Origin: Lingula anatina
Taxonomy: Eukaryota > Animalia > Brachiopoda
Reading direction: 5' to 3'
DNA length: 64,000 nt
NCBI GenBank assembly: GCA_051362555.1
Contig: CM120640.1
Span: 13,206,001-13,270,000, forward strand
Positions within the stretch are counted from its first letter, which is position 1. Each line of letters opens with the position of its first letter. Under the pieces are notes generated by a model. The model saw only the letters and a program-made list of their open reading frames with translations. It was not told where the DNA came from and did no database searches. Positions 9,252-62,151 of the stretch are shown in pieces. The position numbers were made by a program, and so were the translations under genes.

Positions 9252-12200
9252 TCACTCTGCATGAACCCGCGACATTCGCAGCTGTCTTTGAGAGCGCCTT
9301 TCTTCGTGCCAGGTATACACAGTTTCTACTGCTTCAAAGTAATCTTCCTCCTTGACATTGAAACGAAGAAAGAGGTACAGGCTGAAAGTTACTGCCAAGA
9401 TGAATCTACTGTACGACATAACAGGATGAAGCCACAGTATCACAAGAAAACACGAGATTCCAGGATGACGCATGTGCTTGTACAGTCTTTGCATGCTGCG
9501 TGATGTGTGTTCCTCTGGAGGACCAGTTCCAACACTGTAGTAATAAACCTAAAAAGACAGGGTAAAAAGATTTTTTAAAAATTTTCATGCAAAAGTGTAT
9601 TTGTTTTTTTAATCTGATAATTTTGAAGAATTTGAGTGACAACTCTAAAAAATTTAAAGATCTGGATAAGCTCATAAAATGACATATGCTAGTAAACTAT
9701 ATTCATTAGATATATAGAACAACTAATGCAAGAAAAAAGTTATTTAATTAAACAAAAGAAAAATAAAGATGCCATATATAAATCATTAATTTATTGACAG
9801 CAAGAAAATATAATCCTACTCTGTAAGTCTTGGCAGACTGCAGGACAATGCCTTTACTAATACAACAAGAATGTTTTGTGACAAACATTCAACTGAACAT
9901 AGGAAAAACAACCCGCCCTTATCTTGCAAACTTGAAGTCAACTTCACTTTTTTGGCAGGAATTCTGTAACTATTCAGCAATCTTTTCCAAGTATTTTCTT
10001 AACCACCTGCAACATCTAAGACCATTTTTGTTTAACTGACTGACATGTCCTAGGGCAGCAATGCTAGGTGATCGCACACCTGCAGGAATGTGATACGTTT
10101 ATGTAACTTCTACGAATTGACATTGCTTAGCTTCTTGCGGTGACACAAAGCTTGAGGCAGTCAAAAAGATGGCTTTAAACATACCAGTAAACTAGCATAA
10201 CAGCAGTTCAGGCAAATGTTTGAAGGCCACATCATAAAAGCAACATTATGTCTTTTCTGAACTTAAATAAATATACAGTCACATGAACTCTGGCATGTGA
10301 TCATCTTTGTTTCTAAAGGTTTTAAGTGTTCCATGTTTCTATTTTCACCATCTAACTCTAGTTTCTATGCAGGAAGCCTTCAAGGCACAAGGGACAGAGA
10401 ACAGCTTAACAGAAAATAGTATTAGTTTTTTCTTTACGTTATCCACTGGAACACTGGGTAACTTTTCAAATGTTAGAGCAAATTTATTCATTAAGGTTTT
10501 CATGGTGAAAGCACACTACTCAAAGCAAAAAGGGTGAAAAAATCTTTTCAATATGATGCACCTGAAAGTTATATATCTTTCTAATTTAAAAATTGAAATC
10601 TCTTAAGACACTGTGACTAACAATGTATTACAATATATTTTAAATATATATTAAAATTATAAAAATCATAACTATAATTACAATGAAGAACATCAAATAA
10701 TTGTCCTGGAAGTTGGAGTTGGTACTTAGTAATAACAGCAAGGTTTTTAACACTACAAAACTGTCCACTTTCAAAAAAGTTACCTTAAAATTAAAAAAAA
10801 AGGTGAAGATAAAAAAGCAAAGGTTAGATCTAAACTATTTACACAGAAATTATTTCCTCAACTATGTATATAGCAGATCCAAAATGCTTAATCTGATGAT
10901 CAGCACTATTGATTTTATTGCACACCAGTCCATCAATGCTTACTATAATTGCAACTTTTGAAAGAAAGTTAAGGTTTTGCTTAAAACAGGGACAACCCAT
11001 AGTTGATCAAAATGCACTAGCTTGGACATAATAACAAATTCGTTATTATGTCCAAGACTAGGTACCAAGCACTTACTGTGCTGAATTTAATTAACCTTTA
11101 AATCAATTCTAATTTTAAAAAGAAACCACTTTTGACATCATCCATTCATATTTTCCCTTTAAATCATAGGGCAACTGAATACTTTATCTACACTACATAA
11201 CCTCTTGAGAGTATCCATGTCCAGGTTCTTCATTTTGCATTAAAGGAAACCAAAGACTGGGTTCTTATTAACCTATGGTACTAGCAGGATCGATCCCACT
11301 CCGAGGGTATTCTCACTAAATTGAATTCATCTTAAGCGGCTTAAATTTCTGTCACGGCCACTGAAGCTGCAAGGGGGAAATTAACTTTCTTGCATGCTTA
11401 AACTGAATCCAATTTAGCGAGAATCCCCTCAGAGACATTTTGATCCTGCTAGTACGATAGGGTTATTGGAATGGTCCCTAAGGGTTAGTGATGATTATGC
11501 ACAACTAATACATTTGGCATTACCTATTTACCTGGAAAATGTATGAAAAGGTGGAAGTGACCAGAGGCTGGCGCAATTAAATCAAGTCCACTAATACATC
11601 AAAACATTCAGACGCATGCATGCATACAAATTAGAAATCAAATAAAGGAAAATGGTTATAACCAAACTTAATTGCCAGCAGTATGTCTTTTTAATCTGGA
11701 ACATTTTTTTTTTTTTTTTGCTTATTTTGAGATTTTTTATGAAAAAGGAGGCAGGTGGGGAGTAGAGGGCAAGAAGCCTGTATTAACATTACTGACGATT
11801 TAATATATTTGTTAAAGGTTATTTCAGCAACATGGTACAAAGAGATGGGTTGCTTGGATTGCAGGTGTATGTGATAAGACAATGTTTAAGGACAGACCAA
11901 GTTAAATCTCTTGAGCACGTGTACTTATTAACCTTCATATTCATATTTTGATTAAAACATGTTTACTTGATTGCTCCACTGATCTACTTTATTCTCTTTC
12001 GTACATGTCCCGAACCTTCCAAGGACAACCTACAATTTTTGACTTATAGCCCCTCAATTTCTGAGGGAAGGACTATATAAGTAAAAGCAAACTCTTACAC
12101 TCACATTCATCTTAATTGCATTTCATATTCTCATTTCACAGACATTTCCTCTCTCACAGAATGCAAGTTGTGATAGATCATAGATGGGAGGCATCCACAG

Positions 12201-15200
12201 TTCTACACTAATTATAGCATCTCAAGAGAATAAAATTGTATGCAAATGTCACATCCTGTGAATAACATCAGTAAATATTTTAACTGATCACTGTGTATTT
12301 ATTAACATATCTTATTACAATCTTTAACTGCTATGAAATACTACTTTTCTGCCCTAATATGGGAAAGATAAAATCTGACCACACTGACTCAAATTATTTC
12401 CACAAACTATCTTTATCTACAAAGGAAAATGACAATTGAAAAAGGTTGCAAAATAATGAGAAATAATGACTTCCAAGTGAAAAATTATAATTGTGCCTGA
12501 ACAAAAGTTTTGCACCAGAAATAACTTAGATATTTACTGATGATTAAGACACAATTTATGGTAGGCATTTCCAGTATGGCTCAGTGTATTTCAATTAAAC
12601 GTAAACCTGCTTCTGCACACAAACTGTCATAAGTAATAAAATAAAAATAAGAAAAAAATAATAATAATGGCAATATACTTTAAAAAAAAAACTACCAGAA
12701 TTTTATTTTGGTATAAGAAAATAAAAATTAATTTTCTGTATTTCACACTGATAGATCTGCAAAAACCAATCACATTACAGAAAACATTTCATATATCTGC
12801 ATATACCAGTAAAAAGGCAGCCAATGAGCTGCCATGTGCCCACCTGGGGCTAGCACTGCTCCACACAGTTAACCTAGCTGAGTCAGATAGGGGAAAACCG
12901 TCACGACATTATGGCTGCGGGTGACTTGCCCTTTCAACTGACATCATTCTTAACCTCTGTCCACTACACTGACTCCTTGACCAATGGTATCTTTTTTTTA
13001 TAAACATGAAATACTTTTAATTAAGAGTGGTGTTTTCTTTTGTTGCACTATCAGTTTTTTTGTTAGGAAAGAATTTGAAAAAAGTCAGGTAGAACATGCA
13101 GCTACATGTAAATCATGTTGCAGTAGTACCATTGTTAAAATTACAATAAAGTATTCAATGGCTCAATATTTTTTGCTTGTCTGTGGATGTGATAGTGACA
13201 TCCATAAAACTTTGGCTACATGCTTATCAGGGAGCATATGTTCCATTTAAAAAGATAATACCTGAATATGATTTCAACTTTTAGTTATTTGACTTTGACA
13301 AAAATTGTGCTGGAGTAACTCCAGCTTCCGGTAGCAGTAAATGAAGTACATTTGGAAAAGCCATGTCTGCCTTGTTTTCACATAAAAATCCCCACTTATC
13401 ATATATACATGTTTTACATCAGATTCTAAAAATGCTTTGAGAACCCAAGTAAAAGAGAATTAGTATCTGCCTAGGATTTTTTCACATATAGCTATATTAA
13501 ATGACACATTCTCTCCAGTCAAATTCAGATAAAAAATAATCATAGTAAAATTCAAAATTCATTTCCTAAATTGTGGCTGAACATTCTGTCAATCATTTTT
13601 GGAAGTGGTGAACCCCTCACACAAAATTCATTTGGCAGATGAACATGCTCAGCCTCTTCCAGCCGGCTCAACATGTGTCATACCCTCCAACAGGCCAATC
13701 AGAGTTCAGATCATAAACAGTATGATTAACCCATCAACATGTGGCTATTTAAATAAGAAGGGGATTGCTGGTTTGTTCTTTAAACACCATTCACTGTTGA
13801 GATTCACAGAAGTTGCAGACAAATCTCAATGAAGATGGATTTATTGCAGGTAATTATATAGGCCAGTACAGGCCATTAATGACTTTATAATTAAATTTAA
13901 CAACTGAAATTAAGTGTAACAGCTGAGGAAAATGGGACCAGGTACTGTACATTTTTAATCAAAGGGGATATTTATAGTAGGGCAATGGTTTTGCTTTATT
14001 GCTTTGATTAACTAAATTGTATGTAGTCACACATAATTTATATCAAGTACAAGTTAGTAAATTTTTACCATAATTTGTCCACCCTTCATAGTAAATATGA
14101 TTTATTGGTTTTATAAATGGATTTTCCCCTTCAATTGTAATTTTTTATCATATAAAATATGAACGAACAAACAAGTTACAAGACTAAAACTATGTCAAAG
14201 TAATTCTCCTTTTGCTGCAAAGTAACCAAAAAGTATTGAATATACAAATGCAATTTTTCAAAAATCATTAGACACGATTTGCTCTAGCTGTAAATATTTT
14301 TTCAAACCTATTTTTTCTCAAAATATTCAGACCTGCAACATTCAGAATAACTGTGTTTCTTAATACAGGTATATCAATTGAAGACTTTTTTCACATTATG
14401 ATGTCAAAAACTGTAAAAGAAAACCCTCTTTTAAATCTCAGAAATATTCACATTTTCTGATTTCAGTATCATTTCATTGCTGCCATTACCATTATTACAT
14501 CAAATGGAGCAGTTCTGCCAGTTACAGAGAGGAAACACAAAGTAACCCTGGGCTTTAAATCTCTCCAAAAGTCTAAACCAGAGAGCATGTATGGACTTCC
14601 TAAAATTGTGGTGCCTGAGCTTGAAAAAACCCTTGCTACAAAATCCCAGAGCAACATGTCAAGTATAAAGGAAGATACCATTCTCCAAGGCGAATTTCCT
14701 GGACAGTTTTTCACCCCTAAAGAAATCAGGGCTATGAATAATGTGTTGAATAAAGCTAACCTGATTCAAAGTAACAGGAAGAAAAGAACATTGGACTCTG
14801 ACATTTGTTGTAGAACGTAAGTTGGCACATTTCATATAAATAGTAATTTATGAAAGAAAGATATCAGGCTGTCTAAGGGTTATTCAAAAGGTTGCCAATA
14901 TTCTGTGCCATACTATGTGAATTAAGCTAAAATAGGCTGATATGTAAAACTTGTGACACAGATCATCCTCTGACAACCCCATGACAGGCATTGTCCAAAT
15001 AATAAGTTAAAACTTCTTAACTTATGAAACATCAACATCAGATAACACAATTTAGTTTTGACCAAAAGTTTGGTGAACATTTTTGTAATGTTGCGAAATC
15101 TTTATTCACATCAAGAAGCTCAAAAGAGAGAAAAGTTTTGGATAGGTGCTATTTGATGGTTGGCATTTGCATATGTGATATATTTTTTTAAATTTCTTTA

Positions 15201-18200
15201 AGAAATCTGTGGTTTGGCTCTGCACCTGAAAGTATGAAGGATTGGAAGGGAGAGGGCCCATACACCTTTCTCAAGGGAGCACAGACCTTTCAAGCCTATG
15301 CCAGAGGAGACTGTGGGGCAGAGAATCCGCAACCACCGTAAGTTCCTTTTTACTCTCTGAAAAACTCTCCATAATTATTCTGGCTGGAATGTTTGTATTT
15401 ATTCCAAGCCAAACACTAATATACACTATATACAGTTAATTTTGATACAGCTACTTAGACTTTATAAACTCTGCTTGATAACATGTAATCATTAAGACTC
15501 AGGAGCATAAATCATTACTTTAGAAAATATCAAAATCATGACAAGGTAAAATATCTGCAGAGCAGTGGTACGGAATTTTCACTTTGTGACAGGTAAAAAT
15601 TTGTCAGATACCATTCTAACAAATTTTTCTTAAAGAAATTTAAATAAATACAAGACCTCTAGTCATCATTCAGAAACAAAATTAGTAAATATTTGAACTT
15701 CTTATTTGTTTGTTACTGTTATTATAAACCAACTTGATACATTTATCTTTCAATGGCAAAAGGTTAAGTCCTATAGAAAGCTATCAAAATTAACAATATG
15801 GAACTGACACAAAAAACCAGCAGCTATGAGCACTTTAGATGACACCCATGACCATAAGACAAAAGAACAATGCTGTTCATTTAAGTCTTTTCATGGATTT
15901 GATTACCAACATACTGTCACCAACAGCTGGCAGCCATGGTAATAACTAGGACCATTAAAACTACTGTCAAAAGAGATACAATTCCCATTGTGACTAATAT
16001 GACTAATCTTGTGGCTTTTTTCATCTTATTTCACAGCTGCCCCGAAGGAGGAACATGTCGACAGAAACAGCGCCTACACTTGCTCTGGGTGGAAAGCAAA
16101 ACTGAGCCTGGTAAAGCTGAGCTGAAGTACTTCTACATCAACAACCACTGTGCATATGAAAGTCTAACATACACGGCCTCCATAGGACAAAAGCCTGACA
16201 TCCGGCTACCTGTGGCTCAAGCACTGACCAGTGGTGACTCTGCAGGTCTTGACACTTTGCGGACACTGTATCCAAGTTACCCTGGTCTGCCTTGACTTAT
16301 GTGAGAGAACCTAAAAAGCCATTTTGTCTCAAGTTGGTATCTCCTTAAGTACTACTACTAGCCAGTTCATCTTTTGGGCTGCACCTTGTTAGATTTTGTA
16401 GATATCCAAAGATACATGTAGGCTGCGTTTCTAAAGTGAAGACAATTCAATGTTGAAAAAAATTGGATGTCTCAAAACTCTAACCATACAAAGCAGAAAG
16501 TATAATGTACAGCAGGTTTTATTTCAAGTTTAGGAAAACAGATTTAGTCCCAAATTATTTAAATTTTGTTACCCTTACCCTCTTCACAAAAAAGTTGCAT
16601 TATCCAAAAAAGAAAAAAACACATTAATTACTTTGTACGCAACTTGTTAAGTAGCCAATGAATAACACTTACCAAGAAATGTACATGGAATGTATTGGCG
16701 AGGGGTATAAATTCTTTCTTGAAAGCTTATCAGTGCTAGGGAAGAAGGGTTTAGGAAACGGATTTCATCTAAGTATGGTTAGATGCATCTCCTTCTCATC
16801 TAGACTCACTAACATTTCAAAAATTTAGCTATGTAGTACTCATTCATTCAAGTAATTACACTAGCATTATCTTTTCTGGTCATTAAGAACAGCACTGTAT
16901 AAGACTGTAAACACTTCCGTGTTCTGGATGTTGACTGCAGTGTCCACAGTCTAAAAACCTTGGCTGCACTCCATCCACTTCTTTGCCCAAAGCTAAGTTT
17001 CTTGCAGGTGGCAGTTATGACGCTATGAGAAATTGACAATCATGCCAAGACTCACTCCAGTAAAATTTTCTTTAGCCAAAAAGATGTACCTTACCTCAGC
17101 CAAATCAAATAATTTTGTTCATATCAATGACAGATGGACTTTAAAACATAAATAAAAGAATTGTTACATTCTTCATCAAAATCAATAGTGCCTAGCTAAC
17201 CCCCTGGAAATATCCCATTTATTTATTTCAACACAAGCCCAGAGCTGTGACCACAATGACCTATATACAGTGTCAACTTGACTTTAATCAATATAACAAT
17301 GCTCTTTAAAAACTTTTTAATGCATAATGAACTACCTCAGTCTGCCTTAAGGTAGCTAGCCCAGCCAATATATATCCTGGCAAATCATCTACATACAATA
17401 AGATGTGAATCCAGGGGTTTGCTTATTGTTTTATTGTCATTAGCTTTTTCATAGCAAATGATGTAGTTGACCTACATACAAAAACCCATGAAACCTGGGC
17501 TTCATTACAAGGGCTACTAGAAAGGAAAACAGTGTATTATCAACTTGAAAAAAAAATGTCACCTTTGGTCAAAAGGTGATTTAATCTGGTGTGAGCAAGC
17601 AGGCAAATAGTAAAACAAGAATAAGTATGGGTTTTGCAGGCCAGAGTTTAAAGACCTTTGCCTGACTGGCATAAATCTTAGGCTATGTTAGGCTATGTTA
17701 GGGTAAGTAAACGTCATCTTTATATGGGCTTGCCCAAAGCAGTAAAGACATTTTTTGTACATGCACATTATCTGAAATTATAGTAACCAAAGTGCCTTGT
17801 TTACCTTTGGTATTAAAGTAGATATGATGATGAACCTCCAATAAATTGACATAAGTTTCTAGTACAGGTTTACAAAATGTAGGGAAAACTAACATAATTA
17901 TTGTTTTTTTTTCTTAAGACATCTGTTATGCAACCCCATCTTGTTAATATATTGAGTAACCAGCAATCCCTGTAAGATTGCACAGAATAAAGCATATATG
18001 AGCTCTTTAATGTATTGTTTTTCAAATAATAACAAGTAAACATATACAAGTACATCCACATACACATATGGAGAGTCATAAACGCCACAATTGTCTAATC
18101 CCAAGGGACAGCTGGTCTCTTTTGCCACTCTCATTGTAGTAAGTGAGTAATATATATACAGTCATCTGGCAGGACCAGCACCTCATTATATCTACAACAA

Positions 18201-20974
18201 TCTTGTATGTTTTTTGTAAATAAATGTCTTCATGACTAAACAGTTAAAATGCCTCAGAGTATCATTTGCTTATGTACACTGAGCCCCAGTCATCAACGGG
18301 GAACACACCAAGGTATACTAAGTGCATACTAATAGGTCTTGTTGTGTTAATCACAAGCTTTACAGTAGTTATGAGCCTATTTACAATGCACTTTAGTACA
18401 GGTGGGTGGGTGTAACCAGCAGTAGGTTATTTTCATATTGCAGGTTGTGAGCAACAGTCAAATATTTTTATATTGTTTAATTTTACTTTTGATTTTTGTG
18501 GTATCTCCTCACCTTATCAAAAAATATTAAGGACAAAATGCTTTAAATTTCATATTGTTTTATATCGTTTTTAGAAAATTCCTAAATTTTTTAAATCTGA
18601 TAATCAGTTTCAAGTTATGTCACAAGAGGAGTCTATCTTAAACAATTAACAATTTTTTGTCATAAGAACATAATTGATTGCAGATCTTCAAACAGGTAGG
18701 TTGTACAGGCAGGTGAGTTATTATACACTTCCTCACAGAAAGAGCCCTTACCTGTCTGACACCAATTAATTCCAGAAAGTCCATGGTCAGTGTTGCACCA
18801 ATCAGGAGAGCCCATGCAACTAAATGAATCAGGAAGAAAAAAAGCCAGAGTGTGGGGCTTTCTGACGTATCTATGTACCACAGGGCATAGTTAGGGCTCT
18901 GCCAGAGGAGCATTAGGACCTGAAGTAAAAAGAAATCCAAATTATATCTCCTGACCCATTTTACCTTGAATCTGTTATTTTGTAATAAAACACCTCTGTA
19001 TTTAACTGTACATGCACCTGTAACGGAAATATTAGAGATGAAAACTTCCTGCCTCTATTTTTGACTTTGTTTTTTTTTTCCTTAATCTGGCACGTTATAT
19101 CTTGCACAGTATAGTACAGGATATATTCACTTTGCCAGATATACAGGAAACATCAAGCCAGTAACTAAGAAAAATTTAACTAAATGCACGCAATCTTGGA
19201 CATAGATGTTTATCTTCCAGGCTGCGTTGCAAAAAGACCTACATGGATGCACTCCATATTTCCTTTAAATTCCTTCTCTAGAGACTGATAACATGCAATC
19301 AAAATATCAAACTTCAGGCTCTATTTCTATAACTAATAAATTTAAAGGGTTAGAACAAACACACCCAAAATATAAAATACAAATAATTCATTCTATCATT
19401 GTAACTTGTACTTTAGAACCATCTCCAATAAAAAACTATACACTTATTTTGATATTAAACACAGATTCCTTATATTGATTGGAATGCTTAAATAATCATG
19501 TAGGAATTGAGTATTTTGCTACCAGAATAAGGGGGATGGGATATCAGTGAAAACGTTTTACAGGAACCATTAATTTTAATAAAGAACCTTGTTGTGTTTT
19601 TCCTTCCCTTATCATCACAAGTTTCTTTTTTTTCATCTTAACATTGCCATTTCTTTAACAGAGACTGAAACGTTAGAGGTAAAAAAGATATTTACATAAA
19701 CACTGTTCAATTTAGCAAAGTTATTGGGGGTGGAAGGGGGTGGAAGTGATTATACCATACTGTAGGCAAACAATTAACATTCTAAAGTTGACATTTAAAA
19801 AATACCACCAATGGGGTCAACAGGAAATCATTTTGTCAACCTATCATATTCGTGTGTATTTCACCTGTAGAGTAACTGCGGTCAGCACATTATAGATGGT
19901 TCTGTCTATCACAGCCAGACCCCAGCCATGCAACAATCCCTTCCACCACGACTGTGCCAGTAGTGTGTGCTGCCAGAAGAATAGGTTCATCAACAGGTTG
20001 TCCACAAGAAGGGGAAAGAAGATTGGCTCTTCCTCTGAAGTATAAACATTCAAGAATACTGTATCATGTACTTTACACCCAATTATCTTGCTGGTTTACA
20101 AACCTGGTGTGAGAGATACCCTTATGTTCTAACAGTCATTCATTTTATGAAAATCATGGATGTAGATAAAAAAAAAAACTTGTCCATACATGTACAGCAC
20201 CTGGTGGGTCTGTTACAGTAACTAAGGAAACAATCTTACATGGTCACAACTTTTCTTGCAGCTACAGTAGTGAACAAAATGTGTGTGTGTATGCCACTCA
20301 TATATTTTATTCAGTGTTGGTCTCTCTAGAGTCTATGACAGACAAAGGGAAAAATAAAATGTCCCATATTATCAGGGACAGCTGAGGACTTGGGACTCAT
20401 AAGTATCAATGACCGAAAATTGAAGATAAAAATAAAATGTTACTCATATATATATATATATATATTATTCCTTGAAAGCTGAGGGCAACACTAACTACAA
20501 ATGTACTTGTATATATTTCCTGAAATTCCATTTAGTTAATGCTGTTTTCATATTAATTGACCGATCAAGGTGTCAGCATAGCACAAAGATCTATGCCTTG
20601 ACACTAGCTCCTACAGGCATTCAAAGTTCCTGTCACCACATTATTTCCCAGAAAGGGTGCTGACACATTGAACTTCTTGCTCAGTTGCTGGATGACAGCC
20701 GAGCATGTATTAACCTGCTAATTCACCAACCATCAATTTTACCCTGTCGTGGCCTTTTTTACCTAGCGCACCTATTTGACCTGCTATATCGTGTTCCAGC
20801 GCTGGTAGACTTGTGATAGAATTTAGAAAAGCAGGTGCGTGTACCTTCGGTGAGGAGAATTCCCCTTTGCGTAGACAGGAAGGCGACGAATTGTGAAGTC
20901 AGAATGACGGTATAAGTAACGGCCAGAATGGAAATAAACCAAAAAGCAGCCATGCTGCCAAACTGCACCGTCAT
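9252..20974 (-). CDS. NRM: Nurim (nuclear envelope membrane protein), 4 exons, ~254 aa
   Basis: Exons 20974-20845, 20034-19865, 18919-18752 and 9548-9252 join in frame (765 nt). Nurim motifs: LFFWQHTLLA, DRTIYNVLTAVTLQVLMLLWQ, DFLELIGVRQ|VYY, RLYKHMRHP, LWLHPVMSYSRFILA. Confidence 0.93.
11021..11056. repeat. 36-bp palindrome (15-bp arms) flanked by ACTAG direct repeats; possible transposon footprint or micro-MITE
   Basis: actag|CTTGGACATAATAAC-aaattc-GTTATTATGTCCAAG|actag. Confidence 0.6.
11272..11462. mobile_element. piggyBac-like MITE (~190 bp, long imperfect TIRs)
   Basis: TTAA|CCTATGGTACTAGCAGGATC ... GATCCTGCTAGTACGATAGGG|TTAT. Inner arms GAGGGTATTCTCACTAAATTGAATTCA and TGAATCCAATTTAGCGAGAATCCCCTC also pair. 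A TTAA target and CCY termini are piggyBac hallmarks. Confidence 0.7.
12879..12899 (+). promoter_or_regulatory. Adjacent AP-1 (TGAGTCA) and kappaB-like (GGGGAAAACC) sites ~0.9 kb upstream of the nested cystine-knot gene
   Basis: Consensus matches inside a locally GC-richer block; function not shown. Confidence 0.35.
13695..13753 (+). promoter_or_regulatory. CCAAT box and TATA-like box (core promoter of the nested gene)
   Basis: GGCCAATCAG at 13693-13702 and TATTTAAA at 13746-13753, ~80 bp before ATG 13829. Confidence 0.55.
13829..16295 (+). CDS. Secreted prepro cystine-knot protein, Spaetzle/neurotrophin-like, ~254 aa, nested antisense in nurim intron 3
   Basis: Exons 13829-13849, 14467-14816, 15203-15337 and 16037-16295 are all GT-AG and phase-consistent (765 nt). 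Signal-like N-terminus MKMDLLQYHFIAAITIITSNGAV, a pro-domain, furin site RKKR, then the mature region TLDSDICCRTNLWFGSAPESMKDWKGEGPYTFLKGAQTFQAYARGDCGAENPQPPCPEGGTCRQKQRLHLLWVESKTEPGKAELKYFYINNHCAY. Confidence 0.8.
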
Positions 20975-21303: not shown

Positions 21304-24300
21304 ATGGCAACAGTTCGCATTCCAAGCCATTTGAGAAAACTGGTGGTGCACAACATTACAAACAAGTTTCGAGATGCTGTAAAGACGGTCTCCGTCCAGA
21401 TACCACAGTTAGGGCCTACTGACTTACTGGTCAAAACAAGGTACTATGCTGCTGGCTAATGTAAACAGTCACTTAATTGTTGGTTCAGTGTGAATTAAGA
21501 CACTATACTACTAGATACAAGAAGACAATAAGTGCATGAAGTCACATGTACCACAATGACTGGCAAATATATCTCTAGACTTCACCTAGTTAATGTTTAC
21601 AGCAGAGGTTTCTGAATCAATAAAAAAAATCATATGAAAAAAAATTAAACAATAATTAAAAAAAAAAAGATATACTACATTCATTGTATTCACAATAATT
21701 TCAGGTTTGTTGGAATCAATGCATCGGACATAAACTACACTGCTGGTAAATATGATCCCAAGAAAAAGCCACCATTTGATGCTGGATTTGAGGTAACGTA
21801 ATCTGTTACATGGTACAGTGCTACTGGTAGTATACATGTAGCTAGGTCACTGTTTTTAGTTGATTGATCTTTTTTTAAACATTTTTACAGGAACTTGTTT
21901 ATGGGACTTTTAGATTTTACAACAACGTACATAATTTGCAGAAAAATATGACTTTATGATTTTAATATGTTCACAAGTAATTTATTTTTAAAGTAAAATG
22001 AAAAGCCCTTTGATATATAAGTAATTTAAAGATGTGAAGTCATTGTACCAGTGATATAAAACTGAGTGAAATAGATTGTTATGCAAACTTTGATTTGCCA
22101 AAATGTTTTTGCATGTTCATTTCATCCTTGCAGGGTGTTGGAGTAGTTGTTGGCATGGGAGATGCCTGCAAAGGCTTCAGTCTTGGGCAGCCTGTAGGCT
22201 ACATGAAATATGGATCATTTGCTGATTATGTGGTTGGTGTGTGTTTGATGTTGAATGAAAACCCAGTGACTAATTAACCATTTTATGGCATAGAAAGTGA
22301 CCAGATTGCAATCTGTATTATGTGTTTTATTTCTGAATATTTGAATAGATTTGACATATAGTTATTCTATAGATATTCATGGATGATGGATCTTGGTGAA
22401 ACTTACAAATGAAATATTGTTATAGATTTTGAATATCTGATTGTGACTTAATTATTGAATGATTTTTACAATGAAAGGTCCTATCAGCCAAAACTGTCTT
22501 CCCACTGCCAGAAGCAAAAGCTGAGTATGTGCCATGTCTAGTTAGTGGGTTGACTGCTGCTGTCAGCCTGGATAAGGTTGGAGAAATAAAGTCGGGGGAG
22601 ACAGTTTTAGTGACAGGTAAGTCTATAGTAACAGACTCCAGATATTTATGTCTCTTTTGTCTGCCTTTCTATAAACTTTTGCCATTCTAGAAATTTTTTC
22701 TCCTCTCTTAAAATGTTTGTTAGAAAGAAATAAAGGCAGTTGAAATTATCATTAACTCTCCTGAATTTAAGTGATATTTAAATGAGTGTATTGAAAATTC
22801 TGGGGAATGGTTCTGTACAAGTATTTTATATATGTTTTAAACTTCATAATGCTGATGATATTAATTATGTTTTTGAACTTAAATATATTTCAGCTGCCGC
22901 TGGGGGCACAGGACAGTTTGCTGTATGTAACTTATTTATTATTTATTTTTTAATATACTAATAACAAATCAAACATTTTTAAAAGAAAAAAAAAGAAAAA
23001 TCTATTTTGCTAATTTTTTGCTTGCCTTAAAGATAAGTTTGAATATGTAAGGTTATTATGATTATATTTATCTCAACTAATTGGTTAACCTTTTCCTTTA
23101 GGTTCAGCTTGCCAAAAATGCTGGATGCCATGTTATTGGAACATGTTCTACAGATGACAAAGTGGACTTTCTTAAGGTGTTTTGTCATACATTGATTTAA
23201 TTGGAATTAATCTATAAGTACTTCTGTATTAAACTTATAGCATTATCAGTATTTTATTTCTGTCTTTTATTTCTTTCTTTTTAGTCAATATTGTTGTGGA
23301 CTGTGGACAAATGCAATTTAATTTATTGTTTATTTAATTAATTATTTTGCAGAGCATTGGTTGTGACAGGCCAGTCAATTACAAGAAGGAAAACCTGAAT
23401 GAGGTGCTAAAAAAAGAATATCCAGTAAGTATTTACAAAAATAAATTAGCATATAAACAGTCTTTGGTTAGTATTTTTTTTTTATGTCAGTAAAAATATC
23501 TCATTTACTTTGCATTGTTCACTGTTGGATTTGGCCCAGAGATGTACATAATTGTGTTGCATAATAAAAGAACAACAAAATAACAGAAATGAATAAATTT
23601 TCAAAAAATTGGGGAAAATATATTATGTAAGTAGAAAACAAGAAAATATTGTTGTAATATTTATTTTCAGAGGGGAATAGATGTTGTTTATGAATCTGTA
23701 GGAGGAGAAATGTTTAACATTGCATTAGGAAGGTAGGTTACAATAACATTCTGTAAAACGAAAACACTTGCAAATCCTGGCCTGTGTATAAATTAGTTGG
23801 AATTTTATGTAGAGATGTTTTAGTGTCAAGTTTAAGTAACATTCACATTAACATATTTTATAATTTTGTTGCTTACTTATTGATTAATTTTTGTAGGCTT
23901 GCGCTTCATGGACGTCTCATTGTTATTGGTTTCATATCTGGTTATGAAACAGATCTTGGTTTTATCCCCACAAACTTATCCACTCTGCCACAAAGGGTGA
24001 GTTTTGTCCTAGCAAACTCCATAACTAAGAAAAGTTGAAAAAAGATCTGATTGCCATTTTCAAAGAATTTTCAAAGTGTTTTTATGCTTCTGTTGCGACC
24101 ATTAACTAGCAATCTCTGTCAGTAGACAACAGTGAACAGTTTACTGTGAAACAAAATCTTTTGCTTCTCCATTTAGATCCTGCCCAAATCAGCCAGTGTG
24201 CGAGGATTTTTCCTGTTCCACCATTACCAGCATTTCAAGAACCATTTTCAACACATGATCAGTCTGATTTCAGCAGGGAAACTGAAGTCAGTAGTGGACA

Positions 24301-24699
24301 ATGGCAGACACTGGCAAACAGGACCTTTCAGGGGACTAGACTCTATACCAAACGCTGTTGATGTGAGTGAAAAAAGAGTTAAGAGATAACAATTAGTAGT
24401 TTTTTAAATAGTAACAAGTGTTCTTTTTCATTTCCAGTTAAAAAAGAAAGCTATCACTAATTTGTAGTAATGGAAGTAAGTTGAATGTGTTATCTTTACA
24501 AAAGGAGGTAATTTACAATAAATAGGTAACAAATTAAGATCTCACAATTAATAGAATATACAAAGATTAGAAATATTCAACAGATTTTTTTTTTTTTGGA
24601 TCAGAATTGCTTTCTCTTTTGTTTCAGTATTTATATTCAGGAAAAAGTGTGGGAAAAATAGTGGTGGAATTTCCTGATGAGGAGCAGAGCAAGCTTTGA
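21304..24699 (+). CDS. PTGR3: Prostaglandin reductase 3 / ZADH2 (MDR family), 11 exons, C-terminal PTS1 signal SKL
   Basis: Exons 21304-21440, 21705-21792, 22134-22232, 22478-22616, 22894-22922, ~23102-23176, ~23353-23424, ~23671-23732, ~23897-23996, ~24177-24362, 24628-24699. Motifs: [74 protein letters not shown]. Confidence 0.95.
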
Positions 24700-39200: not shown

Positions 39201-42200
39201 GCATCAAGAGTTTAAAAAGAACATATACAAAATTGTTAGAGGGTTGTCACACTTCTTGATTTCTCTTCACTTTCAACTAATAAGATCAATATTACTCAAA
39301 GCAGCATAGAATGCAGAATACAATCACACTTCAGGTTAATTTGGAACAACACAGTTGTTAGAGCTATTTACCAATCCTTTTTCAATTTGATTAATCTATA
39401 AAATTAAGCACTTAACATGTTATTACTCACAATGATCACAATACATGTTAGTATTATACATAAACATTCACTACTAGCACATTTAAGCAACTGCTATGTC
39501 ACAATATATGTAACTATTTACTTTGACATTTAATTCATTTCACATACAAATCTAGTTAAGCATACCACTATTATTATGGTAAAATGAAAAAATAATAAAA
39601 TATTACATACAAAGACACAGCTTTCTGCCATTAGGACCTGAAATTGCCAGAATGGTCTACCACATGGCCTACATGCATTCATATAAAAAAATTACATATA
39701 TGTTGAAAAGCTCTCAAATTAAATATAAACTACAGAGGTCATGTGGGCACTGACCTTGGTTTTATCTGGATCACAGTAGTCCAGCAGAGTATCACAGAAG
39801 TGGTAGCCCATGGCCTCAAAGTCAGCAGTACTAAAGTGGTACCCCTTCATCTTGCCAAGGGTAGAACCAGCAAATGTTGCCTAGAGTAGAGTATGTATAA
39901 CATTTTTTTCTTACATTTGTTTGTTTTCTGTACATGTCAATACATATACCTACTTACATGTGAACTTTACTAAGCTTCACACCCCTTTAAATGGTAACAA
40001 CATAATTTAAGATAATGGCCATGCCTTAATTCTCTTTAATTCATAATCAGATCAATATGCATAATCACTATAAGAGTAAACCAACCTCCATAGTGTAGCT
40101 GTTCATTATCCCCATGTTCCAGATCACTATGCGTCCTGTGCCCTCTTTGCTCTTTTGAACTTTGAACTTGCAGTACTCATAAGAAAACTAGAAACAAAAA
40201 CCATGAAATATTAAGACAGCAAGAGAAAATGGTAATTTACAGAAAAAAACAACTAATTCCTTGGTAACAGTAATGAAATACATGAAAAAAAAAATATTCA
40301 TCTTACATTGTGTGATTGTGCAGTTTGCAGTCTTTTTATTAAATGGTATACTTTCCTTACAGGTAAGGTATCAAATATGCAACATTATAATAACAATGTT
40401 TGTGGAAACAATGCAAACAACTCACTTTGTCTGAGGCATTCTTGCTGAGCATTACTGGGAAGACCCTCTCTCTAAATCTCTTGTCTGGATTGTACTTGTT
40501 TTCACAGCCGTAGATGAACACATTCATCTTCCTGCTGTGTCCATGGAGATCACAGTATGTGACAATCTCATGCTCATCTTTCAATCTAGAAAATAAGTTG
40601 AACACAAGTTGTTTTTATTTTCTAATGATCATGAAAACCCTTCATATGAACCACCTCTTGGCAATATGTATAAATTCACATACAGACTGTAAAGTCAATT
40701 TTATTTCTATTAAAATGTTAGTCAGTTTCATTTAATTTTTTTTTCTTATAATGATTATCATTTAAATCATTTTCTGAGTGTGAAAAAAATTTAATTTCAA
40801 TATTTTCTCACAAAGAAAATTTCACTCACAAGTATGGTAAATCAACATTTCAAAAAGTTGTTTAATTTTTTTATTATTTAACTTACTTTCTAATCATGGC
40901 CTTTGTGTGCCATATGGAGGGAAAAGAATCTTTTAGGATAGTTTTGTAATTTCTGTTGAGGTCTCGCCCAGAGAGGGAACAGCGATAGTTCCCCACTATC
41001 ACTCCATCTGGGTTCAACATTGGCACAACTTTGAAGATGAATGTGTCACGTAAGAGCTGGAAGAAAAATTACACTTTTTGGGATAAAGTTGCATATAAAA
41101 AAGAAACAAAATATAAAAGAATGAATTGGGCTCATTTGACTGAAAGTTCCTAGAGAAAACAAGTGGTTCAAATTTTTTAAAGTCAAATATCCATATGTTC
41201 AAAGTGACAGCTTATAAAACTCATCAAATAATCTTAATGTTTAAAAAATGTATTGAGATACTTGCAGTGATGATACTTTCCACAAAGATGTGATTGCCAG
41301 AGAATGACTACAGGTTTAATTCAAATATAAGAATTAATATACTCTTCTCTAACCTTGGCATCAGGTGAAGTCCCAGTAAGGAAGTCCAGGAAGCCTTTCA
41401 TCATCCAGCTAGCATTAGTTTCTCCAGGGTGGACCCTGCTAGTTAGCACCACTGCCTTCTTCAGCTACAGATAACCAACATAATAATAATATCAATTATC
41501 AAATAATGTCAGTATATATCATCTCCAATATTTTACAACAAGCACTAAAAGTCCATAGAGTATAACTGTATATAACTGACAATAGAAAAGTTTGACATAT
41601 AAGGCAGAATTCAACATTAAACTGAATATTTCAAGATAATCTGGAGAAGATGTCTGGGATTTCTTAACTCACCTTTCTTGCTTTACTATCATGTCCCTGG
41701 GTGGCTGACACAGGAGAAGTTATGGTGAGAACATAGACTAGATTTCCTGCCAAAGTACGACACAGCACCCTTTGTTTGCAGATCCGTGACTTGATTGGAT
41801 CATTTGCAATGTTCATAAGATATTCCTGCAATACAATTTATATAGGACAATAGCTTTAGTTTTGGTTTTCAAATAAACACAAAATCATTACATTATATCT
41901 AGGACTAAAACTACTCATTTTAGATATGAAAAAAACTCTTAGCCACCAATAGCATTATTTCACAAATTTTGGCAAAAGAAAAAATATCCCTAAGCAAACT
42001 TGAAAGATGTACAACTCCAATTCAATGCACCCTTCACTAGGTCACACCCACCTGTAAGTCTGAGTATGTATATGGATAGCAGTGAGCAAAGTAGCAAGTG
42101 TCATCCTTGTACTGAGCCTGCCATGTCCAGGTTAGACTGTAGTAATTCCTCTCACCTCCTTTGCCAAAATTATACCTATATAAACAAATTGCAACTTCAG

Positions 42201-45200
42201 AATTAATTCAGGACATTCCTAAAACTAATCAAAATATCAAAAGTCACCAAACAAATAAATTCATTTAACTGATTGAACAAGCACTTACTTTAGATTATTC
42301 CTGTAGTATTTGATTTCTGAGCCTGCCCTAACCCAGCCAATTTTGTTGTTGGCAGCATTCTTATCACTGTACATGCAGGGTTTCATGCCATTGTTGTACA
42401 GGCTGTCAGGCTGAAAGCAGACACAAAAATCTCACTGGAAACTTCTCAGCTACTGAAGAAATATTTTCAGATAATAACATGACATATTCAGTGTGATAAA
42501 ACAAAACATACACAGTTTTGTTTCATTCCCTTAAGTTTGCTTTGAGAATAATTAATTAAGCCACCAAAGAAAAGTTGTTATTGGAACTGTTTTAGGAGGC
42601 AGTGTCATGGAAATGTAGACTGTTGATGACGTTAATGCCAGCAAGCCTGACAGAACTTGATAATGGTAAAAATCTAAATAAAAGAATGGGTAATGCCACA
42701 CTTGCTATCACTTCGTAGATGTTTTATGATATGATTCAAATTACAGTGTTCTGACCTTCATGAAGTTGACAATGGTGAACCGGTATTTGACATTTGGTCT
42801 GGTGTTGGAGAGACGGAAGTAAAACCACTGTGTGTGCTTGTTAGTGTACAAGTCATTCCTCAACCACAGTTCATACTCATAGTCTCCACTGGAAAATAAA
42901 ACAACAGAATAATAAAATTACACAGAGAAATATGACACAGGTTTTTTAAATTCCACAATTCATCATTACACCTGCACCGTTTAGTGCCTAAAGTGAAAGT
43001 TTTGCCAAAATGGATTTATCACGTGTTGAACAAAAAAGTTAAAAGGTTCTTTACATATGAACAGACAATTAAATGATCACTGCTATTCATTCCATAATAT
43101 TATTCAAACATGCTAGAGCTGGCAGACAATTATTGATTACGTGCTATGGTTGCCACTAGAGGAAGGACAATATAATTTGAAACGTGATAACATTAACAAT
43201 TCCTAAAAACAAACTTACACTTTGTACACCTTGAAAAGGTTTCCACTTTCAAACCTGGACTCAAAGACTAGGGTGGTGTCATCTGGAGACTGAGGCTTGT
43301 GAGCATAGGCTGTACTGGAAAGAGGATTTCTCAACCCACCAACTCGAGACTTCATGAACTAAAATGAAACCAAGAAATATTCTGTGTATGAAATCTACTA
43401 CAACTATTTGTAACTGTGAGTTTACTGGTGCTAATGTATGTAGACACATCATCAGCATGGACAGACACACCTGTCAGAATCAATATACCACTTCTTCATG
43501 TACATTTATGAATAATAGCATACATGTACAGCTGCATAAAACAAATATCATTTTGTCTCATTTAATATTAATTTATTATGACAATATGAAACTTTTGAAC
43601 TTACTTTTTGCATATTTTCATTACTTCTTGCAATGTTGCAGCAATAAACTTTTATTAACTTATTATCTAAAATGCATGTTATATACTTTTAAATGTTACA
43701 GTATAAAATATCATCCCTGCTCAAACATGCAGATAATTCTTGTTGCCACTACTAAGAAACATGTATTAAGTACAATATAAGACTTACAAATGGTCCTGGT
43801 TGTGGATCATAGTAATAAACACAGAGGCCTTCATCCTCTCCCTTAGCAAGAGGCCTTAGTTCTGAGCCAGCTGAAAAAATAGGCAATCTGAATTATCATG
43901 TAATTCTTAAAATAATTTTCAATATTAGTCAAATCCTTCAAATTTATACAATTAAAAAACATTAAAAGCTAATCATTAATATGATCTGAAAACTGAAGTT
44001 TGACAGCAGTGCTACATTTACATGAAAAATTCTGTGTAGTAAGTATGCCTTCTATACTTACTTACATGTATGTATATCATAAAGACAACTAAAAATACAA
44101 TAAAAGCGCTAAATTGGAACCAAGCCACTTAACTACAGATTATACAAATATGAACCAGTTGGATCCTGGTAACTACAATACACATCTTTTAAATGATCTG
44201 ATGCAATTTTATTTTCATTTGTGCAAACACTTACTTGGACGGTAGAATTCTTCAGGTTCAGGTGGCACATAACTGATGTGTTTTATCAGTTCATCCAGCA
44301 CTTCAATTTCTGATGGCCTGCGAATAAAACCAAAAGTGAAGTAAAATCTGCCATTCATTTTATGAATAAAGATTAAGAACCAATTTGAAAGTCAACAGAC
44401 AATCAAATTTTAACTTAGAATTATGCACTGTTCAGCATTGCCACAGTCAAGCTTGTTTGAACTTCTCCATTACATATTGTCCCCCTTCAAATCTGCAACA
44501 CTGTCGAGAACAGACAGGTGAAAATGACTCCAAGTGACAACTGCAAGTTAAATTGTTCTCTGCCCTTGACAATCATCTATTCATCTGTTTGTTATTAACA
44601 ACAAAACTCCTGTTGTCACTGCTCAGTAAACATTTCATCCTCAATTACCTCCACCTTAACACATACGACATTGTGTTGGTTTTCTTCATTGTTTTTCTGA
44701 TCAATTTTACAACATTGCCATTGCCCATCAGAAAGGATTGAGATGGCTTGTTGAAGTCTTAAATTGTCTTCTAGAATCTTTATAACATACATAGATCTAC
44801 AGTGTACATGTACTTCAATCTTGTATTGCTAAACTAAAGTATAATCAATAAAATTAAAATAGTATGCTCTCCTATTGTATCCAGATTAAAAGAATTGCAC
44901 CAATATGATCCAACTCATCAATATATTCTTGTTTAAAACAGAATTTGGTCATTATAACATGAAAATCTTTTGAATAAGGACCCAGCACTGTTACTATGCC
45001 TCCAATTATTTTCGTAATTTTCACAGCACTAATGATAGAATACGTGCTATCTATCAATTAAATACAATGCACGACAATTACTTCATTTCCGTAGTATTGA
45101 GATGTTGGGGCTGTATATTAATGAATCCTTGCAGAGTATGACAGCTATTCTGAATAGACAATCCATAAAAATCTAACAAGTCCATTATAGACACCTGTGC

Positions 45201-57041: not shown

Positions 57042-59140
57042 ATGGTACGAATCAAACATCATATTCTGCTATTAGTTGGCCATATTTGTAATCATTGAAA
57101 CATGAAACTGACAAGCTATGTCTGATGTTATCGTGTACTTATATTTTGGCGTCTGATGCATAAAGATGTTTCAGATTGAAACTGATTTTTCTTGGGGGGG
57201 CCCGGGTGCGTGTCTATTTCACACAGCTTGTTATGATGCACCTTTTACATGTAGTTTTTGACAATTTTGCAGTATTCTCTCCACCCTGTAAGTCTTATAT
57301 TTCTCAACATCTTTGTTAAAAATGATGAGGTGGCTTTAAGCAATGTCTCTGCCATTTAATTAAGTCATATTGGCAATTCATTTACTAATTTAATGTATTT
57401 TACCAATACATTCATGCCCGTAAAATTTGGAGAGCAGAAGCCACCACAGAGTTGAAAATTTGCTATAATCTCATAGGTCAAACAGCTTGAAAAGTTAATA
57501 AAAATATTAATAGAGTAAAACATTTCTTAACTTATTTGAATAGCAGAGATATTGATCAAGTCACGCTCGGCTGTCACCTTGATTGGATAGTAAACGATTG
57601 TCGTAAAATCGCTAAATGATATTAAAACCGGGTTCATAAACTTGAAAACCACCTAGGACAACCTTAGACTGCCACATTAATCCAATACAATGCAAAAATA
57701 AACTATAACAAGTGGTTAAAGCCTTCAAACCGAATGTCGTAAAGTCCCCATATACCTCCATAGAGACATTAAAATAGAGTCAGCTTGTGACAGCCGAGCG
57801 TGGATCAAGTTCATTGCATAACCTCATTATGATGAATAAGCACTAGAGTTATGGGGGGGGGGGGGGGGTGCAAATGAATCCAATTTTGTTTGATGTTTTC
57901 AAAGGAGGTGGTGATTGAGCACTGACGAATTATTGATACTTATGTATGGCAGTCTTGGTTAACTTACATATTTTTATAAAATTTGTAAGCTGTACCATTG
58001 GACACTAGTCCAAGAAACTTGGACATCTAGAGGCACTGGGCTAGTTAAAAAATGAAAGTTTTGTATATCACCAGGTCACTGTTAGGTCTTGATTACCTGG
58101 GCTCCGTATCTCGAAAGGTTCGCTATGTTGCGCACGTGCGCAAGTGTCTCGATTCCATAACCAATTCTATTTCGAGATACGGGGCCATGGAATCGAGATG
58201 CTTGCGCACGTGCGCAACATAGCGAACCTTTCGAGATACGGAGCCCCTGAACTGCTATGAGTCTTTTTTTTTTAAGACTGAATAATAACTGATAAGGTTA
58301 ATTTTATTTTCCACTAAGATAATAAATTGCTGAATGCTCTTTTTTTTTACATTTTCTCACCAGCCTGCCCACAAGACATTTAGAATAAAGACCAAACTGG
58401 CTAAGGCTATGAAACAGAACCGCCCCATTCCACAGTGGGTTAGGATGAGAACTGGCAACACGATCAGGTAAAACTATTACTTTGTATAATGTAGGTATAC
58501 TCTGAAGCTAAACAATTAAATTTTGGTTTCATGGTTTATCATGGTTCATATTTATCATTAACTTTTCCTTTGGTCTCTGCACACTGGATTAAAACAAAAT
58601 TATATTAGTTGTCAGTGCTAAAAGTGATGGTTATTACCAGTAGGTTGTTGTCATGGTAACCTAAGGACGTCAATTTTTTTTCATGGTCTTTATTTAAATC
58701 ATGTTTCGGATGCATGTGTATACATGGGATAAAATCTTGGCCTTTTTAGTTCGTAAATCTGTGGAAAGACGTTTGCAGTAAATCATAGTAGATACAACTG
58801 TCATAATCATATAGACCAATTACATTTACTAATCAGATAGATTAGGTGGATCCTTCTGTAGAATTTTACTGTTGTGGGTGACGGTCTCAATGGTAGAGCA
58901 CGTCTTGTCACAGAATTGTACAAATAGGGCCACCTTTTTCAATTCACAAATATAATGAACATTTGTGTCATCTAATGTTAGCTTCTCTTAGATGAGCCAC
59001 CAGTTGTGTTCGTAACACCGGTGACAAAAGTTGCGTAGAAAATGTATTAAATTTTAATACAAATTGACTCTCTGTTCATTTGTTTATTCAGATACAATGC
59101 TAAGAGGCGTCACTGGAGAAGAACAAAGTTGAAGTTGTAA
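57042..59140 (+). CDS. RPL39: 60S ribosomal protein L39 (eL39), 51 aa
   Basis: Exons 57042-57044 (ATG only), 58364-58467, 59092-59140: [51 protein letters not shown]; AATAAA at ~59343. Confidence 0.98.
57562..57802. mobile_element. 241-bp MITE with 16-bp perfect TIRs and an 8-bp TSD (hAT- or P-like)
   Basis: GATCAAGT|CACGCTCGGCTGTCAC ... GTGACAGCCGAGCGTG|GATCAAGT. Confidence 0.92.
58099..58246. mobile_element. Palindromic PIF/Harbinger-like MITE (~148 bp)
   Basis: ~60-bp arms GGGCTCCGTATCTCGAAAGGTTCGCTATGTTGCGCACGTGCGCAAG.. and ..CTTGCGCACGTGCGCAACATAGCGAACCTTTCGAGATACGGAGCCC, with CTG/CCTG at both flanks. GGGC termini and a CWG target are Harbinger-like. Confidence 0.8.
58647..58660. promoter_or_regulatory. 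RFX X-box consensus match
   Basis: GTTGTCATGGTAAC fits GTHNYY-AT-RRNAAC exactly. Confidence 0.45.
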
Positions 59141-60194: not shown

Positions 60195-61137
60195 TTAATT
60201 TCTTTTATTCATAGCCAATAAGTGAAGGGAAGGGAAATAAAGTAAACAGATATAAAGCAACAACTTTATTGACTCACCAATTGCATCATAAAGGTCGAGT
60301 CCGGTGAAAAGAAGGAAGTAGTGTGGTTGCTCTTCTTCAGAAGATAAAAGACATTCAGTAACAAAAGCAGCTGACTTCCATTACGTTGATTAAAAAACTG
60401 TTCACACACACACCAAACAAAAAGAAATACGCCAAGGGTCGTTTTTAAAGTCATGCACTGCATGTTTGAGAACGCGACACGACGGATATCGTAAAAAAAC
60501 CCAGGTATAGCATATCTAGCCTGTGTGCATTCTACGTGTGCGCTTACTTTAATTTCATCAGTCGAGGTTAAATGTGTTACAGCTATCGCCATTTAAGGTG
60601 TACGTGACAAGCTCTCGCTTTCAACTCACTGCCTCATTCTCTACCAGGGGCTATATGTCAATGGAGTCAATGCTGAACACATTTACTGGGCACAGTGCAG
60701 AAATGTGCACAGAATTAGCCAGAGAAATATCTTTGACATTCTAGAGAAAAATCTCTCTGCGGCCCGGGTAAAGAGTATTACTGCCTCGCATTGCCTCTAC
60801 TACCTTTTCTTCATTTTTGAATTAGCTAGGTAAAGGGCAATTTATAACTATGATATGTTGCTAAAAACTTTTTTATGAAAGGTAAAAAATAATATGAAAA
60901 CAGACAAAGTCCGCGAAAACAGACAATTTGCCAAGTGACAACATTTAGAAACTCAGGCTTGATCGTCAGCAAATGCATCGATGAAAATCTTGTAAAGATC
61001 ACGACATGTTGATGGTGATGTAATAGTTAAGTATAATTTCTATTTTTTCATTATCATTTTTTTTATTTTATTTTTCTGCCTCTTGGCTAATCGAAAACCG
61101 GTCGATGTAAGCGAAACTTATGATGTTTGTTGGAAGA

Positions 61138-61236
61138 TGCATAACGTTTGCTACAGGGAAATATTCCAGTGCATGCAATATATATGCTGCATAACGTTTG
61201 CTACAGGGAAATATTCCAATGCATGCAATGTACATG
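61138..61236. repeat. Tandem duplication, two copies of a ~50-bp unit
   Basis: TGCATAACGTTTGCTACAGGGAAATATTCCArTGCATGCAAT occurs twice. Confidence 0.9.
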
Positions 61237-62151
61237 TATGAGCGTCGGTGCCGCAGTGGGTTAGGCTCTCAAATCGAAACCAAGCGACCCGGGCATGATG
61301 CCGACAGAGAAAGGAAGTAGTCTTGAAAGCAAATCGGGTCAGGTGAGTAAAGGTGACATCCTGGGAACAAGAAGAAGGAGACAGTGTGTAAGTAGACATG
61401 AAAATTTAAATTAAGAAATTGAAAAAAGATAGAACATTAGATGCTTCTACAGAGTGAGAATGCTCCAGAAGGTTTGCAAAATAATGATATAAAACGAAAT
61501 GTATGTTTGGAATCTTTGCGTTCAATGAAAAACATATTCAATGAATTTTTCGAAATTGTGTTTTTCTGTCATAAATATTGAAGAAAAGACAAGGCACCGC
61601 TTAGATCTGTTAGGAAATAAAAAAAATACAGAAATTAATGGTGGTACGATTTAAGTTAAGAGAATAAAATCTTCCTTTCCGTACCGGGGAACATCTTACC
61701 CACGGAAAATCGACGGGCATATTCCAAGTGACACCATTATTCTCATATAAAATAACGAGTCGATATAAATTCCTTAGAAAAAATAAGAAAGTCGTCGCAC
61801 TCTGGTGCCACGCGCAAGAGCTTGACAGTTTTTGATGCAGTCAAGATTCAGTCTTATTTCTGATACAAATATTTAAAAAACTATTTTAATTGGAATCATT
61901 GTGGAAGAAGAAAAGCGATTGAATGTATATGACACAATGGGCAGTGGGAAGAATGCAAATTATGGACCAAAATATACTGTATTTTCGACCGTAGTTAAGA
62001 ACAAATCGGCTTCCAGTCAGTATTACATGGACTGTCTGAGACGGTCACGATTTCAGCACGTATCGGAACTAGACAATGTTTTGAGACCGTGACACAGGCT
62101 TTCATTGTTGTTAAAATAATTTTATTCAAAATCTCAATTATTAACTAAAAC

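Follow-up and report, generated by a model that had tools for sequence, protein, structure and literature searches.

A nurim-like gene of the brachiopod Lingula anatina holds, on the opposite strand of its last intron, a second and small gene: what does this small gene encode? The gene occupies positions 13829–16295 of the plus strand in a 64,000-nucleotide stretch of contig CM120640.1 (assembly GCA_051362555.1, positions 13,206,001 to 13,270,000), hereafter the window, and an earlier sequence-only reading had described it as a hidden, lineage-specific ligand of the Spaetzle and neurotrophin type. We give a probability of roughly two in three to the following answer: the gene encodes a secreted precursor that is cut at an RKKR site, and the domain freed by the cut, with the fold of NGF, Spaetzle and coagulogen and likely without a true cystine knot, acts on a receptor at the cell surface.

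Exons 13829–13849, 14467–14816, 15203–15337 and 16037–16295 of the plus strand splice into an open frame of 254 residues, and each of the three introns between them follows the GT-AG rule (in order, phases 0, 2 and 2). The product is identical to the RefSeq protein XP_013406734.1, 'uncharacterized protein LOC106171122 [Lingula anatina]', which was located by using exon 4 as the query (one match among 84 candidates). This confirms the proposed joining of four exons and, because the splice matches a RefSeq protein, also means that the gene is already annotated, so the idea of a hidden gene that annotation could easily miss is withdrawn. LOC106171122 is a real, spliced and already modelled gene without an assigned function. 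Its first coding exon specifies residues 1–7 and ends in a phase-0 GT donor. Exon 2 carries a hydrophobic signal-like segment (14473–14499), a pro-domain motif (D-x2-L-x3-FPG-x-F), the RKKR site (14776–14787, residues 111–114) and a pair of adjacent cysteines (14806–14811). The first half of the mature domain, with the invariant residues W127, P132, Q154 and C161, is encoded by exon 3, and exon 4 adds C170, C176, C207 (16149–16151), Tyr209 at the inferred site of the sixth knot cysteine (16155–16157), a tail of 44 residues and the stop codon. The cysteines of the Lingula protein are thus at 121, 122, 161, 170, 176 and 207. No second copy of the gene was found within the window by tblastn.

RNA reads from four of nine Lingula-labelled raw-read runs, 6–30% of each run being sampled, were mapped to 13560–17300. 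The runs gave 4, 0, 6 and 7 reads (17 altogether, with none from run X4). In run X9 the depth of the bin at the edge of exon 1 is 0.89, compared with 0.888 expected for three spliced reads; 450 bases fall over exons 1 and 2 and none in between, and the end of exon 2 has a depth of 0.06 (0.056 expected). At the two edges of intron 3, read in both directions, run X7 has depths of 0.22 and 0.18 (0.224 and 0.184 expected). By this binned-depth arithmetic 6 of the 17 reads are compatible with splicing, and together they cover all three introns. Pairs at about 16.4–16.6 and 16.9–17.1 kb could come from a 3' untranslated region or from the host intron, and three reads fit only partially.

A phmmer search of 1.84 billion representatives returned seven matches at an expect value (E) ≤ 0.001, four of them at E ≤ 1e-30; five of the matches are unnamed or 'hypothetical' records. 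The protein CAH1786757.1 of the annelid Owenia fusiformis is 54% identical to the Lingula protein over 139 residues, and the gene is therefore not lineage-specific in the narrow sense. Below, P0001 is the Lingula protein and P0002–P0008 are its database relatives; a metagenome scan added one locus, L001 (one of 187 pattern matches), with an uninterrupted frame. A profile search went through 1756 candidates and recovered nothing beyond the four members of the profile itself; the family seen here is therefore small. P0007 and P0008 align to about exon 3 only, which suggests shared intron positions. These two and P0006 are partial, hence mature-domain counts refer to the five complete domains, which share 35 invariant columns that include cysteine, tryptophan and glutamine. 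The 44-residue tail of the Lingula protein has no counterpart in the relatives. In P0006 similarity breaks off at residues 176–187, after a conserved Gln-Ala-Phe, as from a frameshift or an assembly error. L001 has no introns from the pro-domain to the stop (3–596), as in an intronless gene or a transcript, and downstream, at about 1900–2280, tandem units of about 40 bp were seen by eye. No description of the gene or family was found in the literature by terms that did not include the accession, which shows this absence weakly; the searched terms are not mentioned in the main text of PMC13121700 (papers are cited by PubMed Central (PMC) identifier).

The predicted protein appears to have the prepro layout that had been proposed for it. 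The most hydrophobic 9-mer of the Lingula protein is residues 10–18 (mean hydropathy 2.56), and the hydrophobic peak falls within the first 25 residues in all six proteins checked. A basic site of the form R-x-K/R-R or R-x-x-R precedes the domain in 6/6 of the proteins among P0001–P0006 that reach it, and in L001 the site is RVRR. The pro-domain motif is kept in six of six proteins. Within 14674–14712 (residues about 77–88) this motif and a likely helix after it are conserved, and the remaining pro-domain is not; the motif may clamp the mature domain. As judged by hydropathy and the basic site, the signal peptide, pro-domain and cleavage site of neurotrophins and Spaetzles are all present.

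The mature domain is predicted to have the NGF/Spaetzle/coagulogen fold. With five input sequences, the best AlphaFold2 model of residues 115–216 reached a predicted local distance difference test score (pLDDT) of 83.9 and a predicted template modelling score (pTM) of 0.68, and its fold is the one of elongated beta-hairpins known from NGF, TGF-beta and PDGF. When the model was compared with 48,161 chains by VIA-align, 36 rows had Z ≥ 2 and 34 of them were cystine-knot-fold proteins by title, including NGF (Z 8.9, root-mean-square deviation (rmsd) 3.3, 92 residues aligned), coagulogen (Z 7.5, rmsd 1.7, 89 aligned), IL-17A (Z 6.2, rmsd 3.3, 80 aligned) and Spaetzle (Z 4.8, rmsd 3.5, 69 aligned). 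A second structural comparison gave Z 9.1 for NGF (rmsd 2.6, 91 aligned) and Z 6.4 for Aedes Spz1C (rmsd 2.8, 85 aligned). In the ESM Atlas the first cluster by features scored 0.90, a value that shuffled proteins reach 4–10 times in 100, with Spaetzle at 54% and NGF at 31%; by structure the Atlas returned two unnamed mollusc clusters and Spaetzle and NGF clusters at template modelling (TM) scores of 0.59–0.70. The mollusc clusters (148 and 64 members) rank first and second in structural likeness to the Atlas model (TM 0.68 and 0.65), and no sequence search here reached them. The Pfam Spaetzle profile (PF16077) is matched by three of the five mature domains, the best at E 2.4e-4, below the cut-off. 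A single-sequence fold of the whole protein gave no usable model (pLDDT 31.9), and searches of PDB sequences found no cystine-knot protein; their prion-protein rows (E ≥ 0.05, from a two-sequence profile of the pro-domain) and their replication-protein and PBZ/APLF rows were set aside as chance. A TGF-beta reading of the N-terminal cysteine pair was also rejected, the rows having Z of about 3.1–4.0, well below NGF.

The cysteines depart from the knot that the sequence-only reading had recognised. In the growth-factor knot six cysteines are invariant, and a ring of bonds II–V and III–VI is threaded by bond I–IV (PMC4079206); all six are common to Spaetzles and to neurotrophins (PMC2772990). The five complete mature domains have the spacing CC-x37/38-C-x8/9-C-x5-C-x27/30-C, followed by A/S-Y-E. 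In the model the last strand (residues 196–211) holds a single cysteine, with a tyrosine two residues later in all five, and C-x-C is absent from all eight proteins checked, three of them partial. NGF rows mostly end at offset 15, so that C207 corresponds to NGF residue 108 and Y209 to NGF residue 110, presumably Cys V and Cys VI of NGF. The Cys VI site thus appears to be tyrosine in 5/5, and the sixth cysteine instead appears to adjoin Cys I as the N-terminal CC. With Cys VI replaced, C170 (III) would be left without its usual partner. We infer that C161 and C207 would form bond II–V, that one of C121 and C122 would pair with C176 as bond I–IV, and that C170 might bond the spare N-terminal cysteine or a partner chain. 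The domain is likely to be without a true cystine knot, and one of the six invariant knot cysteines of the superfamily appears to be missing. The six-cysteine domain that had been described therefore stands as to six conserved cysteines but not as to six knot cysteines, and the match to the NGF/Spaetzle spacing falls to the tyrosine, the extra N-terminal cysteine and the missing C-x-C. Chordate IL-17 offers a parallel: its fold persists with two of the three knot disulfides (PMC4517768). The Lingula family is likewise predicted to keep the fold without one knot bond (Z about 6.2–6.5 to IL-17), but both cysteines of one bond are serines in IL-17, whereas here one cysteine is lost and another gained elsewhere. 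Such a conserved loss and gain would be an unusual way of retaining a fold. What is new is a small family, shared by a brachiopod and an annelid, whose cysteines appear to be rewired.

Several results weigh against a knot-less ligand of this fold. The Lingula protein has no Pfam match at E ≤ 10, and full-length relatives reach 14 and 19.3 bits against the PF16077 gathering cut-off of 27. Just one of the five AlphaFold2 models, built from five sequences, is confident (the others are at 49–59), and Foldseek returned nothing at E ≤ 0.001, its best matches being neurotrophins at 1.5e-3. The residue registers were taken from the ends of aligned ranges, not from printed alignments, and the disulfide pairing is not readable from the model. 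No splice junction above the listing threshold was obtained for the three introns from the 17 reads of the four runs, and a read pair of run X1 (226 bases) continues, apparently unspliced, a few bases beyond the first donor. The expectations of the sequence-only reading were accordingly borne out in part: depth fits all three introns but no junction is listed outright; Pfam finds Spaetzle below cut-off in relatives, with no match for the Lingula protein and none to NGF; the model has the NGF fold with neurotrophins ranked first, but at no E ≤ 0.001. Its call of an NGF/Spaetzle fold is supported by the model, the structure searches, the Atlas and the weak Pfam Spaetzle matches taken together.

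To which branch does the family belong? Two diagnostic sites separate the families (PMC2772990): site 130 is Trp in neurotrophins but not in Spaetzles, and site 133 is aromatic in Spaetzles and Ile or Val in neurotrophins. In our mapping of sites 130, 133 and 136, inferred from the text of that paper, F201 falls on site 133 in all five mature domains and Leu or Met on site 130, as in Spaetzles and not as in neurotrophins; Pro is at inferred site 136 in two of the five. The invariant P132, 10–11 residues after the CC, is an uncertain counterpart of Spaetzle Pro13 after Cys I. In 5/5 a histidine stands beside inferred Cys V, where some Spaetzle paralogues carry an interchain cysteine; interchain bonds vary among Spaetzles (PMC9427763). 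With Spaetzle (PF16077; Drosophila Spz and DNT1/DNT2, Aedes Spz1C) the family shares the signal-like start, pro-domain, cleavage site, predicted fold, weak Pfam matches in 3/5 and the aromatic residue in 5/5, but it stays below the Pfam cut-off, has Tyr at Cys VI and an extra N-terminal cysteine, and comes from a brachiopod and an annelid. It is Spaetzle-like by diagnostic sites and nearer the neurotrophins by structure score; it fails strict membership of both and is to be filed under neither. The Lingula protein probably works like both.

A rival reading, which we consider unlikely, makes the family a diverged paralogue of the neurotrophins with Trk or p75 as its receptor. Neurotrophins (PF00243; NGF, NT-3, BDNF, NT-4, Platynereis NT) are the best structural matches (Z 8–9, above 4.2–6.4 for Spaetzle), and an invariant glutamine stands seven residues before Cys II, the same spacing as in NGF. 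The RKKR site resembles the RSKR convertase site of Platynereis NT (PMC4812194), and Trk and p75 are present in lophotrochozoans (PMC2772990). Against this, the neurotrophin consensus motif is found in none of eight proteins (three partial) and the Pfam NGF profile in none of five mature domains; in all five, inferred site 133 is Phe rather than Ile or Val, and inferred site 130 is not Trp. Tyrosine takes the site of Cys VI, only five residues separate Cys III and IV, and identity to NGF chains is 11–17%.

It is less probable again that the protein resembles coagulogen in function and needs no receptor; cleavage would then uncover a face through which the molecules assemble into a clot, glue or matrix. 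In geometry the model is closest to the coagulogen of horseshoe crabs (PDB 1aoc; Z 7.5): the rmsd is the lowest (1.7, with 89 residues aligned), the Foldseek query TM-score (0.72) is the highest in the rows listed, and identity is 18%. An abundant transcript would be expected for such a protein, whereas 17 reads were found in the four runs, whose tissues are unspecified; the furin-type site suggests processing during secretion. Coagulogen carries many extra cysteines, and of these, of its extra disulfides and of its N-terminal chain the Lingula protein has no trace; nor is there a match at the level of PDB sequences.

That the knot is canonical and threaded after all, our alignment register being off, seems very unlikely. 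Exactly six cysteines are conserved, and with registers read from range ends Cys I may be either C121 or C122 (offsets 7 to 9), which leaves room for such an error. A growth-factor knot needs two cysteines in its last strand, however; residues 196–211 hold one, and no member has C-x-C. An annotation artefact or decaying gene is hardly credible: read counts are low, no junctions are listed and the gene forms a single-member cluster, but the spliced frame is open, an annelid protein is 54% identical over 139 residues, the Cys, Trp and Gln are invariant, and reads end at exon edges.

The surroundings of the gene call for less comment. It lies wholly within intron 9549–18751 of the minus-strand host, whose GT donor (18751) and AG acceptor (9549) are in place; its antisense position inside the last host intron is thereby confirmed. 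The host is a four-exon gene on the minus strand (the edges of exons 1 and 2 are compatible with 30 models), with its penultimate coding exon at 18752–18919 and its last at 9252–9548. For the last exon 'Nurim' was the first Atlas match at 0.90, the tool's lead threshold, with 188 of 256 features, and three host exons had no Pfam match. Two nurim exons compared with L001, which at 3.6 kb is too short for synteny, gave no meaningful match (E 0.21 and 0.41). Nested genes are widespread in animals, and in Drosophila they make up nearly 10% of all genes (PMC3814207). Both the nesting and the existence of the gene are ordinary, and its location in nurim is most likely incidental. In the promoter ascribed to the gene, the CCAAT of position 13695 lies within 13693–13701 (+), a candidate element that agrees with an NF-Y-type consensus; the 64 kb contain eight such matches, both strands counted. 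The TATA box is a non-canonical TATTTAA (13746–13752, +; 35 in the window), and no TATAWAWR occurs in 13600–13829. A candidate poly(A) signal at 17151–17156 (+) is the sole AATAAA or ATTAAA within 16295–17400.

The nurim-like gene starts (20953/20974, minus strand) head-to-head with a plus-strand gene (21304), about 330–350 bp apart, and a promoter shared by the two is possible. Exons of this neighbour resemble a zinc-binding dehydrogenase, which we take to be PTGR3/ZADH2-like; its Pfam match to ADH_zinc_N_2 (24177–24386) has an E of 0.082. Elsewhere in the window are exons of an M14 zinc carboxypeptidase on the minus strand (40886–43358; PF00246 at E 2.9e-6 for 40886–41068), presumably akin to cytosolic carboxypeptidases, and a ribosomal protein L39 exon (58334–58468, +; PF00832, E 2.2e-13). 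Just upstream of the latter, at about 58085–58297, both strands encode a near-identical peptide, as in an inverted repeat or hairpin element, and a peptide stretch repeated in two minus-strand frames (61071–61405) suggests a local direct repeat.

If LOC106171122 encodes the proposed ligand, the precursor would be secreted, a furin-type convertase would cut it at RKKR to free the mature domain, and that domain, probably as a dimer, would act on a cell-surface receptor. Cleavage of a precursor followed by receptor binding has precedent in Spz and DNT (PMC3790821) and in neurotrophins (PMC4812194). Given a ligand, a Toll-type receptor is our leading guess, possible rather than probable; Trk/p75 or another kinase receptor is a more tentative choice, and so, to the same degree, is a receptor of some other kind. 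Lingula has 25 Toll-like receptors (TLRs), seven of them of the P/mcc type (PMC8609888). A 2009 survey recovered no Spz genes from lophotrochozoans, its author cautioning that data were limited (PMC2772990). A study of the nemertean Lineus ruber recovered no Spz either and proposed that TLRs sense pathogens directly, as in other spiralians (PMC9835746); PMC7535936 reports no further bilaterian neurotrophins. A conserved precursor of Spaetzle/NGF fold that stays below the Pfam cut-off is the type of gene that such surveys would overlook. It is a doubtful but consequential proposition that the Lingula protein founds a so far overlooked family of Spaetzle-like ligands in lophotrochozoans, with untied and rewired disulfides, and that these ligands act inside the animal as activators of the Toll receptors of spiralians. 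If true, spiralian TLRs, now assumed to sense microbes directly, would have an endogenous ligand. The Lingula protein is a concrete candidate ligand for the TLRs and Trk of Lingula.

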